A stretch of 64,000 nt of DNA from an uncultured Acidobacteriota bacterium (GCA_963804995.1 CAWDSK010000006.1:960001-1024000); one strand, 5' to 3'; positions 45,230 through 49,429 are shown, counted from the first letter of the stretch. Program-made: numbers and translations. The notes: a model not told the origin generated them from the sequence alone.

Positions 45230-45736
45230 AGGATCTACCCATACCAGCTTTAGTGTCTGAATTTGACCCCTGCCCTCTCCAGCTTATGATGCGCTGGAAC
45301 CCAGGCCAGAATTGGCAATCCTGCGGCATCTTATTAGCAGGACTCCCGGCACTACAAATCTTTAACTTGTAAAACCAACTGCTCGGGTAACTCGAAGAAC
45401 CTGGCCAACTGCGTACTTGTCAATGCTTATTGTATGTACGATTCCTGCCAAATTGAACCGCGCAACTTCCTGGTTCCAGTTCGCAGGTTCAAACAATATG
45501 TGTGTGCACAGAATACACGAACTAAAACCCGTGCGCAATCACCTTCTTCTTTCACCTTCTTCTTTCGGAACCATCATTCGGAAAGGGTCATGCAGTTTGT
45601 CATTGGTACCGATCGTTTCGAACTGCCGGGCGGTCGCGCCTTAAGTGTCGATACAAGGAAAGAGCATCATTGGCTTTCTGGTGAGGGAGGTCGGTTGGCG
45701 CAGAGCGAAGCTCTGCGTCTGGAGTTTCTACATTTA

Positions 45737-47116
45737 TTATGCATCAGCGGCGTGGGTGAGGGCGCGGTCGGTGAGTTGGAAGCCCAGAGATTGGGGACAT
45801 TCCGGGTGGTCGACCATTTCTTGGTGCAGCAGGGTGACGAGGTCGAGGCAGGAAGGGCGGTGGGCCTTGCGTCGCCACCGGGGCAGAGCCTGATAGGCCG
45901 TGCCACGCTCGGTGCCGAAGGCTTGGAGAGAAGCCAGGAGCAGCGCGCTGTAGGCGGCCACGACCAGGGCAGGTTGCTTGGGCACGGCGTTAACGTTCCA
46001 TAACTGGGCTTGTCCGACACCCAGCGTCTCCTTCTCGTCGCGGTGGTTGACTTCGATCTGCCAGCGGTCGAAGTAGATTTGCAGCAACTGAGGGGCAGAG
46101 TGCCGCAGGTCGGTGGTCAGCAGGTAGGCCGGTTGACGGTAGTAGAGTCTGGAGCTCTTCCGTTTGCGATAGGGGGTAGGAGCCACGACGAAGAGCCGCA
46201 GGGGGATCTGGCCGGCGCCCCGACGCCAGTAGACTTGCGACACCTCTTTATAACGGAGGCGGCGGCGCTTGCCTCCGTAGAAGAGCTTGGTTTGCTGCCA
46301 GAGGTGGGACTCGTCCTGCCGGACCTGTTCGGGGGTAAAGGTGGAGAGGGCGTAAAAGCGGCGAGAAGGCTGGGGAGCGCGAAAGCCGAGGCGCGCATCC
46401 TTGCGGGCGCGGGCGATCAACTCGGTGCGATCGCGGGGGGCGCGCAGACAGGTGCGGTTGCAGAAGCTGCCATCCAGAGCCAGCACCAGCAGCTTGGCCC
46501 CACCCCCGGCCGCATCCAGCGCCTGGCGCAAGGGGGCCACGCTCTGCACAAAACGCTGCGAGAGGTTGTGGAGCTTGCGCATCCTTTTATATTCCTGCCA
46601 GGCTTCCTCTTTCGCCTTGCGGGAGGGCTTTTTCAGCGGCGCCGCCTCTTCAAAGCGCACGGGCAGAGCGCGGCAGCTGGCGGGGGCGTGCCGATGCAGG
46701 GGCAGCAGCAGGGAAGCTTGCAGAAAGCGCACGCCGCGCAGGAGGTTGACATGAAAGGGGGGCGAGAGGGGATCGCGGTGATAACGCGCCTGGGGAATGG
46801 CGCGGCCGGTCTTGCGCAGGCGGGTGTCGTCGACGGCCACGCCCACCAGGCGGCCGGGACAATAGGGCAAGGCGCGGCGCCAGACGCCGGCAAACAACGT
46901 CTGCGGTTCCCAGTGACAACGCGAGTGGAGAAAGTATTCGCTCGACCAACTGCGCTGCTGGCGGCCCTGGGTCCAGAGGATACGCGAAAGACAGCGTCGA
47001 CCCACGCAGACCAAGGCGCCCAGGGCCTGGCGCACGGCGCGCTGCAGGGTGCGCTGCTGGGGAAAAGTGGGGGCCCAGTCCGCCACGATCTCCGACCAGG
47101 CGGCGAACAGAGTCAT
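45737..47116 (-). CDS. DDE transposase (DDE_5/IS701-like)
   Basis: VAVDDT, LALDGSF and YFDRWQIEVNHRDEK catalytic motifs. Confidence 0.88.
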   Translation of the reverse strand: MTLFAAWSEIVADWAPTFPQQRTLQRAVRQALGALVCVGRRCLSRILWTQGRQQRSWSSEYFLHSRCHWEPQTLFAGVWRRALPYCPGRLVGVAVDDTRLRKTGRAIPQARYHRDPLSPPFHVNLLRGVRFLQASLLLPLHRHAPASCRALPVRFEEAAPLKKPSRKAKEEAWQEYKRMRKLHNLSQRFVQSVAPLRQALDAAGGGAKLLVLALDGSFCNRTCLRAPRDRTELIARARKDARLGFRAPQPSRRFYALSTFTPEQVRQDESHLWQQTKLFYGGKRRRLRYKEVSQVYWRRGAGQIPLRLFVVAPTPYRKRKSSRLYYRQPAYLLTTDLRHSAPQLLQIYFDRWQIEVNHRDEKETLGVGQAQLWNVNAVPKQPALVVAAYSALLLASLQAFGTERGTAYQALPRWRRKAHRPSCLDLVTLLHQEMVDHPECPQSLGFQLTDRALTHAADA

Positions 47117-47448
47117 CGGGCCTCCGGACGTAAGCCGAAAGTGTTCTTCCCGGTACGCAGGAAGCGATCGCCGCGGGCGACTTTTTTGGTCAGCGAAGAG
47201 ACCAGGCTCTCGCGATCGACGGTGACGTGGAAGGCGGCGCGGAGGTGCGCCAGGAGTTCGGAAATGTGCAAGGGGGTACGGGCCTTCTTGAGTATGTCGT
47301 ACGCCATGTCCACTTGGGACAGACCTGTGCGGCGCGGCCTCGGGGCGGGGGCTGGGGAACCGCCGCGGAGACGGCGAACCGCCCGCAACTGGGCATCCAG
47401 TGAGGCCTCGAATATCGAAAGAATGGAATCCTTGAGATCGTCAGGCAA
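47113..47448 (-). CDS. Winged-helix (HARE-HTH-like) accessory protein inside the IS
   Basis: AYDILKKARTPLHISEL..FLRTGKNTFGL; 4-bp overlap with the transposase start; GGAGG RBS. Confidence 0.75.
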   Translation of the reverse strand: MPDDLKDSILSIFEASLDAQLRAVRRLRGGSPAPAPRPRRTGLSQVDMAYDILKKARTPLHISELLAHLRAAFHVTVDRESLVSSLTKKVARGDRFLRTGKNTFGLRPEAR

Positions 47449-47652
47449 GTTAACCTCCGGAGCCAGGACTCAGGAGGAAGGTAACGGAAATCAGGTCGGT
47501 CTGTCAATAGAAATCTTACTTTGCCAGACCTAAATGTAGAAACTCCAGGCGCAGAGCGAAGCTCTGCGTTGTTGTGCGCAAGGTGGGGAGGCTCAGAGAC
47601 GTGAGTCGCAGAGCTGTGCTCTGCGCCACCCGGCCAGCCGCATCCAATTTCA

Positions 47653-47980
47653 TGAGCCCCAAAGGGGCGAAATAACAAAGCCCAGGCCAACGGCCGGGTT
47701 TAGATTATCCGCCGATTTTCCCCCAGCCCTGAAAGGGCGAGATACGCGTTTCCCCATGCCGCAATCGCTTTCCCCACTCTACGTAACACAACAAGAAACC
47801 CACCACCGCGTGGTCAGCGGAATTCCGGAAGCTGCTGGACGCGCACGGAATCGCCTACGACGAACGGTACGTGGGGGATTGAAAAGGATTGTTCCACCCC
47901 TTCAGGGCTCGGGTATCGGTTTGGGTCCCGCTGACCCAGGCCGTTGGCCGGGCTTCGTTAGTTCGCCCCTTTGGGGCTCA
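47653..47980 (+). mobile_element. Internally deleted IS200/RAYT-like tnpA remnant with palindromic inverted ends
   Basis: MPQSLS start at 47756 joined to a C-terminal EFRKLLDAHGIAYDERYV fragment; about 40-bp imperfect inverted ends containing GCCCCAAAGGGGC, with inner GCCCTGAAAGGGC-type hairpins. Confidence 0.7.
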
Positions 47981-48327
47981 AAAACCTGGGCTTCGTTAGA
48001 TCGGTTCCCTCCCCTCGGAGAGGGCGGTTACTCAAGGTAAGGTGCGGCGCCGTAGCCACCCTGAGATCATAGCCTTCTCCCCAGGGGAGTCCGATTGCTG
48101 GACCCCGATGGGGTCCATCGGAACCCAGACATCGGGGAAGGTGGCCGGCTGGCGCAGGGCGAGCGCAGCCCTGCGATTGTAGTGCGGTCTGATGACGTGA
48201 ATCGCAGAGCTGCGCTCTGATGTTATGAAAGCGGCGATGCCTCCTCGGGTGCCGCTAAACTGGAGGTGGTCCAGTTTAGCGGGCCCTCGGGTTCAGACCG
48301 AGAGTTTTGCATCGAGGAGACAAAGCG

Positions 48328-49429
48328 ATGAAGAAGAGTATAACGCCCATTGGAACGCCGGTGGGAGTGGATGTTCACAAGCGTCGTTGCAAGGTGGTGG
48401 AGCTTGATCACGGAGAGATTAAGGCACGGAAGTCGATGGCCAACACGCGGGAGGAGTGGCTGGAGATGTTGACGGAACTTCCTCCCGACGCCGAGATCGG
48501 CCTGGAGGTGAGCACGGCAGGCTACTTTGCCATGAGCGTGCTGGAAGAGGCGGGGTGGCGAGAGCGCGCGCACTGGGTGCACACGGCGGGGATCGACAGC
48601 AACCGCCGGCAGAAGAATGATCGTTTAGATGCCGAGCGGCTGGCGCGCAAGCTGGCCGCGCACCATCTGGATCCGCTGCCGGAGGCGTGGTTTCCGCCGC
48701 CGGAGATTCGCGCCCTGCGTCTGCGCGCACGCCAGCGCTGCTGGTTGGCCCTGCTGCGCACGCAAAGCCAAGAATCACCTGCAAAGCTTGCTGGGGATGC
48801 ATGGCTTGCAGGCGCCGGGGACCGACCCGTTCGGAGCGGCCGGGGAGAAGTGGCTGGCGGAACAGACCTTGCCGATGCCCTTGGCCGAAAGTATCCCTCA
48901 GATCCAACGCCTGCTGCAGTTCCTGGAGGAGGAGATCGAAATCAGCGAGAAGTACTTGCAGGCGGTGGACGGACAATTCCCCGAGTTGGCGCTGCTGCGC
49001 ACAATCCCCGGCATCGGCCCCATCCTGTCCCCGGTGATTTGGAGTGAGATCGGCACGATCGAGCGGTTTCGTTCCGCCAAGGCCTTGGCCAACGATACGG
49101 GGCTGGTCTCCAGCTTTTACGACAGCGGGGAAGTGAAGGTGTCGGGTCCCATCACCCGCCAGGGATCGCGCTGGCTGCGCTGGGCCTTCGTCACCGCCGC
49201 CAATGTCGCCATTCAATACCGCAATCCTTTCGCGCGGCGCTACCACCGCCTGCGCCGCAGCAAGAAACCCAACGTGGCCAAGGCCGCCATCGCGCACTCC
49301 TTGGCGCGTTGTGCGTATGGAGTTTTGAAGCACGGCTGCCCTTATCGGGAAGACCGTTGGGGCCGCCAAGTCGGCGTACTGGAGCAGGAAGCCCGTGCTG
49401 GCGCTAGGTACACCAAGACCGCGCTCTGA
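48328..49429 (+). CDS. IS110 DEDD recombinase/transposase (frameshift near 48766)
   Basis: GVDVHK, GLEVST and KNDRLDA catalytic residues; TIPGIG, GLVSSFYDSG and GSRWLRWA motifs. Confidence 0.92.

Follow-up and report, generated by a model that had tools for sequence, protein, structure and literature searches.

The window, a stretch of 64,000 nucleotides from an uncultured Acidobacteriota bacterium, contains an insertion sequence (IS) that is bordered on both sides by the same short hairpin. This raises the question whether the hairpin was duplicated as a target site and which feature of the target is read by the transposase. A preliminary description of the locus had proposed that targeting is directed by structure, with strand transfer at the base of a cruciform.

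The insertion sequence and its hairpin duplication

The presence of a long hairpin target-site duplication (TSD) around the IS was confirmed. The 21-mers at 45698-45718 and 47549-47569 are identical and flush with both ends of the IS (Table 1), and the chance of an exact 21-mer repeat in this position is about 5e-13. The perfect 18-bp terminal inverted repeats (TIRs), directly flanked by identical stem-loops, are thus present as reported before. In the fold of the 21-mer a perfect 8-bp stem carries a 3-nt loop (about -9.5 kcal/mol with DNA parameters). Because the outermost G and T do not form a Watson-Crick pair, the TSD comprises the hairpin plus one nucleotide on each side. The earlier statement that the TSD is exactly the hairpin therefore holds in that the hairpin was duplicated whole, but it misses the extra base per side. 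The partner of the REP pair that had been placed downstream was found as well: the arms at 47548-47568 and 47607-47627 are 90% complementary at a spacing of 57 nt. Within the IS, the stop codon of ORF1 overlaps the start codon of the transposase gene.

Other mobile sequences lie close by. An inverted-repeat unit with 56-nt arms (47644-47989) surrounds a remnant of 42 codons (47756-47883), which is similar to both ends of a Y1/RAYT-type transposase and has no Pfam match. This unit is 89% identical to repeats beside an intact PF01797 gene in the cargo cassette L255. Moreover, an IS110-family transposase gene split over two frames (48307-49429; PF01548, PF02371) adjoins another hairpin of the same hairpin family at about 48161-48219.

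Table 1. Features of the insertion sequence in the window and cargo cassettes with the same ends in the source genome
Feature	Position	Strand	Description
Whole IS	45719-47548		1,830 bp, perfect 18-bp ends
TSD copy 1	45698..45718		21 bp: 8-bp stem, 3-nt loop, 1 unpaired base per side
Terminal inverted repeat IRR, transposase 3' side	45719..45736		18 bp, perfect
DDE transposase	45737..47116	-	459 aa, Tn5-like fold
ORF1	47113..47448	-	111 aa, winged-helix-like
Terminal inverted repeat IRL, ORF1 side	47531..47548		18 bp, perfect
TSD copy 2	47549..47569		21 bp
Inverted partner hairpin of the REP-like doublet that forms the target	47607..47627		Outside the IS
Cargo cassettes L252-L255	C1:444888-451209, C3:826489-835457, C5:1245059-1255639, C6:1026896-1031991		About 70-100-bp shared ends with TIR

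The source genome (G000) contains seven copies of the IS, which are 1-6 nt apart and all carry the 18-bp TIR. All seven have a long palindromic TSD (18, 19, 21, 21, 21, 22 and 23 bp, the last with one mismatch), each of them a different hairpin. Short non-palindromic TSDs, named beforehand as the outcome contrary to structure-directed targeting, were not found among these copies. A search for an orthologous empty allele in 28 other genomes of the genus matched only the 25-31-bp hairpin, and paralogous empty sites were therefore used. The doublet is uninterrupted at C6:1888652 and C6:1889540, with the partner at 57 nt, and at C6:1890529 the same first hairpin and the start of the spacer are present without an IS. 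All three empty paralogues carry a single hairpin at the target position and not the double hairpin that had been considered as a possible prior state. Therefore, the second copy arrived with the insertion.

A second family in the same genome (39.7% identical, 1,763 bp, 10 copies) has hairpin TSDs of 18-27 bp in eight of its ten copies. The remaining two (C1:277560 and C2:761522) have swapped flanks, which implies a rearrangement between copies. Re-pairing of these flanks yielded one 21-bp hairpin TSD and one 7-bp repeat that is not a hairpin. The latter is the lone sign of a short TSD made on duplex DNA and thus counts against an absolute rule. Besides, MITEs of 163-175, 305 and about 510 bp share the TIR in G000, and four cargo elements of 5.1-10.6 kb have the same ends and no transposase of the IS family. 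Several of these MITEs and cargo elements are flanked by hairpin TSDs, of up to 33 bp on a 15-bp stem. The interiors of the MITEs at C5:1182935, C6:703455, C6:1258121, C6:1411795, C9:314569, C3:683961 and C6:2041593 consist of long palindromic repeats.

Footprints in other genomes and the length of the duplication

Homologues of the transposase fell into 443 clusters at 50% identity (E<=1e-30); of 8,000 candidates that were scored, 6,231 reached E<=1e-40. The 80 named genome records listed of the 176 confirmed were mostly Acidobacteriota MAGs; Hydrogenedentota, Armatimonadota and one Lysobacterales were the other hosts among these 80. Matches on plasmids were only about 25% identical, and phage records gave no match to the transposase. 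A single closed-chromosome Bryobacterales assembly (G423) held 49 matches, 45 of them complete, and TSDs of 18-28 bp flanked 39 of these 45 copies. Of these TSDs, 38 were dyad-centred and 37 ended at most 1 nt from the stem foot. The six copies without a TSD include L075 and L286, which are reciprocal flank swaps. An element of 41% identity in G324 had hairpin TSDs of 21-27 bp in four of four copies.

Across loci L001-L080, 117 of 133 ends abutted a perfect stem of at least 6 bp within 2 nt, compared with 51 of 10,000 random genome positions. Long TSDs were found in 15 of 17 cases in G000, but in 13 of 38 in metagenome contigs. In G420 (L062, L067-L069) and G423 (L266, L276) other elements are inserted within the IS ends or a few bases inside them.

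For a pooled analysis all loci and G000 were combined with at most two mismatches per TSD, which gave 191 distinct end pairs with both flanks. Because palindromic TSDs extend the inverted repeat and mislead de novo end finding, ends were called by motif anchoring. The repeats measured 0-4 bp in 80 pairs, a class at chance level that includes some chance end pairs in G000, 7 bp and 16 bp in one pair each and 17-33 bp in 109. TSDs of at least 14 bp were thus present in 110 of 191 pairs, and in 104 of these 110 the midpoint is also that of a stem of at least 5 bp. The edge lies at most 1 nt from the last paired base in 94 of these 104, whereas 10,000 length shuffles averaged 65.7 and never exceeded 76. 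TSD length followed the stem (rho 0.60), and long palindromes (half-length 12-16) were cut at most 1 nt from the foot in eight of ten cases and not about 10 nt from the centre. Short stems were mostly cut 1 nt outside the foot and long ones at or just inside it. In one repeat family the symmetric cuts lie at two different depths (27 bp in L193, 21 bp in L202), as expected of a branch-migrating junction. The pooled TSDs comprise 89 distinct target cores. In 70 of 73 cases, and in 38 of 39 in G423, the two cuts lie symmetrically around the dyad. A length preference exists as well, since 86 of the 110 long TSDs cluster at 19-23 bp and 69 at 20-22 bp. As 39 of the 110 come from one genome, these counts are not independent and the statistics overstate independence.

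Altogether, the footprints suggest that the feature read is folded, cross-shaped DNA and not a fixed sequence or length. Structure-directed targeting as proposed in the preliminary description is supported by TSD edges that keep to the stem foot at lengths of 17-33 bp, the behaviour expected from a cruciform-foot model. With regard to strand transfer at the base of a cruciform, the footprints do lie at the stem foot, but it is from them that we infer the cruciform itself. A long TSD was missing in 81 of the 191 end pairs, 63 of which are IS-sized. Hairpins were present at both ends in 44 of these 63, at one end in 17 and at neither in 2 (control: 26 of 5,000), and the missing long TSDs fit recombination between copies together with chimeric short contigs. 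In L020, L022 and the G000 element at C3:683961 one hairpin copy is trimmed to approximately the loop, which suggests a later deletion at the hairpin tip.

The targets are richer in GC than the hairpin control (0.70 vs 0.62). Counted from the cut, bases 6 and 7 are G in 72% of targets versus 31-34% of non-redundant G000 hairpins, a comparison of targets pooled from many genomes with control hairpins from one. This GG bias may reflect a preference of the enzyme or the make-up of the repeats. REPs had been named both as the target and as the unit that is duplicated. Hairpins are indeed targeted, but the counts do not establish a specificity for REPs, as repeated arm families account for 15 of 21 G000 targets and for 1356 of 2400 of all hairpins (p=0.19). 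By counts only, a GTRG tag lies near 9 of 21 targets and 503 of 2400 hairpins; terminator-like targets made up 7 of 73. The hairpin is also copied, but the GTAG tag is usually left outside the TSD, for instance in the commonest G423 target. The extra copy is therefore a bare hairpin, and hairpins are added more than complete REPs.

Relationship of the transposase to known families

In the transposase the residues D95, D214, E354 and K361 are invariant among 80 aligned homologues. A full YREK motif, assigned by the spacing of this motif as Y347-R350-E354-K361, is present in the protein and in the consensus of the 80 homologues. The predicted structure has a pLDDT of 96, and the top six Foldseek matches were Tn5 transposase or its inhibitor (best E 2.7e-11, TM about 0.55). 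A sequence search of the PDB retrieved Tn5 only, with E about 0.2. Having a DDE triad in an RNase H fold, TIRs and near-identical dispersed copies, the element is a DDE IS of the IS4 superfamily with Tn5 fold. Pfam DDE_5 was matched with 27.3 bits (cut-off 27). NF049999 (transpos_IS701_3) was the best NCBIfam profile with 132 bits at a cut-off of 170, which the transposase of the second family exceeds with 182.7 bits. IS4 profile models gave at most 36 bits against cut-offs of 115-250 and the IS1634 profile 12 bits against 100 (NF033559, E=0.076); no IS30 or IS1182 model was among the NCBIfam/Pfam matches at E<=0.1.

The element is related to classical IS701, yet it departs from the features that define this family. 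According to the parts of the IS4-family review cited here, IS701 elements make a 4-bp TSD and IS4 elements one of about 10 bp; IS701 members mostly miss the Y of YREK, are 1.4-1.55 kb long and have the end consensus ---YACT-Y--YR, which does not span the whole family (De Palmenaer et al. 2008, PMC2266710). In contrast, TSDs in the hairpin clade are 17-33 bp long, and the window IS has the full YREK motif, ends of the CTGGAGTTT type and a length of 1,830 bp. With IS4 sensu stricto it shares the complete YREK, but neither the 7-13-bp TSD nor a profile score above the cut-off. The IS1634 family, with duplications that are either 5-6 bp and AT-rich or very long and variable, does not accommodate it either, as the profile score is low and the repeats are GC-rich hairpins.

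ORF1 was considered as a target selector and rejected, because different members of the clade have an HTH-like, a MazE/AbrB-like, an unrelated or no product at this position. The ORF1 product of the window lineage is HTH-like (HARE-HTH, E=0.0015, below the Pfam cut-off) and that of the second family MazE/AbrB-like (E=0.021). L141 and L154 have an unrelated upstream ORF, and L159 and L160 have none; nevertheless, an 18-bp hairpin TSD flanks L160. Elements that lack ORF1 measure 1.47-1.52 kb. Since ORF1 is not common to all members, target choice most likely resides in the transposase, which alone would read the cruciform. Alignment and structural model point to two candidate regions. One is a clade-specific insertion, basic and aromatic, which precedes the YREK helix at about residues 311-327 and is modelled as a beta-hairpin; the other, a proline-rich basic helix at about 157-184, is conserved. 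As a guess, the beta-hairpin might contact the junction and the helix might take part in binding it. In the second family, for example in L214, the MazE/AbrB-like ORF extends into the transposase frame, with the overlap at a lysine-lysine run, and the two may be fused by a -1 frameshift.

A phylogenetic placement, as the preliminary description had advised, set the clade apart from outgroups with short TSDs. In an IQ-TREE analysis of 42 proteins and 446 columns the hairpin clade is split from the outgroups by a long branch (UFBoot 100), and NF049999-type and IS701 elements are the nearest outgroups. The clade in this tree includes eight members in which no paired ends were found; L210, L213 and L221, in which no clear TSD was found, were kept as outgroups, and L249, a partial ORF whose long branch had fallen inside the clade beforehand, was left out. 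By comparison of ends and flanks, outgroup TSDs are short (4-9 bp) and without hairpins, and IS701-type outgroups showed the 4 bp typical of that family. They measure 4 bp in four of four G298 copies and two of two G159 copies and 9 bp in G256; de novo calls on single copies gave 4-5 bp for L177, L209, L211, L223, L226, L227 and L228 and 8-9 bp for L251 and L235. In L177 a CTAG lies outside a CCTGGAGTTT end, and the terminal CTGG/CTAG as a captured IS701 CTAG duplication is a candidate idea.

No paired ends were found in six deep-branching homologues on long contigs (L194, L196, L197, L198, L203, L250) and in L200 and L215, both near contig ends. One end lies beside a hairpin in L203, L192 and L195. 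L194, L196, L197, L198 and L250 contain clade frames of 500-560 codons without detectable paired TIRs and with altered residues after the catalytic E; they are old copies or possibly domesticated.

Proposed mechanism, alternatives and precedents

We consider it likely that the anatomy of the element, the dyad-centred TSDs with edges at the stem foot and lengths that follow the stem, the many targets and the short TSDs of the outgroups are best explained by an IS701-related transposase with Tn5 fold that captures a short palindrome as a cruciform and performs strand transfer at its two 5' feet. In DDE elements the TSD is as long as the stretch of sequence that separates the two bonds under attack. 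A recently active IS of this IS701-related clade of the IS4 superfamily, presumably using cut-and-paste chemistry, would capture the palindrome as an extruded or protein-extruded cruciform. Attack by its two 3'-OH ends would follow a diagonal of the four-way junction, one end per strand, and each end would hit a hairpin arm at its 5' foot or 1 nt outside. One attacked bond would mark the left edge of the palindrome and the other, on the opposite strand, the right edge; at any arm length the two would be neighbours across the junction, and the stagger in three dimensions would be short. When the arms relax, a gap of whole-palindrome length would arise on each side, and fill-in would duplicate the hairpin. 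Spontaneous extrusion of 8-bp stems is energetically doubtful, and therefore the protein or local supercoiling would have to help.

Other explanations were weighed against these footprints. A fixed ruler acting on duplex DNA, with cuts about two helical turns (20-22 bp) apart, preferably at symmetric GC-rich sites, and no extrusion, would agree with the TSD mode of 20-22 bp (69/110) and with the symmetric, soft GG bias. Nevertheless, it is quite improbable in view of 89 different cores, of TSDs that follow the stem from 17 to 33 bp with 94 of 104 edges at the foot against a permutation maximum of 76, and of long palindromes cut at the foot in eight of ten cases; common 8-9-bp stems account for the mode. 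We regard it as very unlikely that the ends attack one at a time on single-stranded hairpins, in the lagging strand or a transcription bubble, instead of a two-armed cruciform. The cuts, symmetric in 70/73 and 38/39 TSDs, fit a concerted event, and DDE synaptic complexes such as that of Tn5 transfer both ends together, although sequential attack would avoid the energy cost of extrusion and L020 and L022 keep only half of one hairpin copy.

Resolvases cut junctions diagonally, and this known geometry would suit a host junction or hairpin factor of the resolvase, SbcCD, HU or gyrase type that brings in the transposase after binding or nicking the cruciform, or else leaves a break that the IS joins. 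Insertion of IS into existing breaks has been reported, but the breaks described in that source yield no TSD (10.1101/2024.06.02.596822). Moreover, the trait is kept across transposases of about 40% identity and across host groups, the TSDs of related IS families from the same phylum sample are short, and the precision of +/-1 nt fits direct strand transfer. Such a host factor is thus unlikely in our opinion. Extremely improbable, and largely refuted already, is an origin by survivorship or artefact, in which the IS inserts anywhere, survives only in extragenic repeats and gains the second hairpin by recombination or mis-assembly. Flank swaps between copies do occur and mismatched flanks are frequent on short-read contigs, but every copy has its own, different hairpin on both sides, a short-TSD class is absent (one of 191 at 7 bp, one at 16 bp), empty paralogues have one hairpin, and 39 of 45 copies on a closed chromosome carry the TSD.

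That this clade duplicates hairpins is real and holds generally; in its action it resembles IS1630, and it is a mirror image of IS1272. These two elements, and not IS1634/IS1549 as suggested before, are the closest precedents. IS1630 of Mycoplasma fermentans, an IS30-type element described in seven to nine copies, duplicates inverted repeats (Calcutt, Lavrrar and Wise 1999, PMID 10601219, via PMC3317919, PMC2853133). The window IS likewise duplicates an inverted repeat, but its transposase is IS701-related with Tn5 fold and not of the IS30 type. IS1630 is known only from M. fermentans in the sources cited, whereas the hairpin clade is wide and includes MITEs and cargo elements. The precedent of 1999 limits the novelty of the phenomenon itself. 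As described in the sources cited, IS1272/TnSha1 (IS1182 family) of staphylococci uses stem-loop targets without a sequence consensus, for which a cruciform model exists, and deletes the stem-loop at its 3' feet without leaving a TSD (PMC5678879, PMC4923244). [quoted passage not shown] 13b of PMC5678879.

Palindromic extragenic repeats are also the landing sites of ISPsy8, ISPa11, ISPpu9/10, ISRm22, IS1397 and IS621 (PMC1525189). In the cases described there, however, these IS cut inside one conserved REP, which is broken, and make 0-6-bp repeats. The window IS, in contrast, takes many sequences and keeps the hairpin whole on both sides. IS1549/IS1634 are relatives within the IS4 superfamily that also have long, variable direct repeats (8-514 bp), but in the cited parts of the 2008 review a link to hairpins is not stated, and according to this review no mechanistic model had been proposed for target duplications of such a long and variable kind (PMC2266710). 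The full-text literature searched, largely without subscription papers, yielded no description of a hairpin-duplicating clade related to IS701.

We tentatively put forward, with slightly more doubt than belief, that the clade is an undescribed one at family level and represents autonomous four-way-junction integrases, which would extrude short palindromes and attack them on one fixed diagonal, as a mirror of IS1272, via the basic beta-hairpin and drive a hairpin-targeted mobilome (IS, MITEs and 5-10-kb defence-like cargo) without destroying the hairpin. A simple rule emerges from more than 100 natural footprints: they are centred on the dyad and end at the stem foot. With this rule the cruciform model can be tested using one Tn5-like protein and an 18-bp end. 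Taken together with IS1272, the model would, if true, show that DDE enzymes are able to resolve a target junction along both diagonals, by deletion or by duplication, and footprints could serve as an in vivo record of the palindromes that extrude. As non-autonomous 5-10-kb cassettes use the same ends, the system would amount to a structure-addressed integrase of natural origin, with the hairpin left intact.

The cargo of the cassettes in G000 comprises AbiEi-like, Zeta-toxin-like, PIN-like, NucS-like, CapP/IrrE-like and ThiF/E1-like proteins as well as a dCTP deaminase, a Y1 transposase and a nested IS21. Three of the cassettes have clear hairpin TSDs (19, 25 and 33 bp), and a further cassette is probably located at C6:1672323-1682123.
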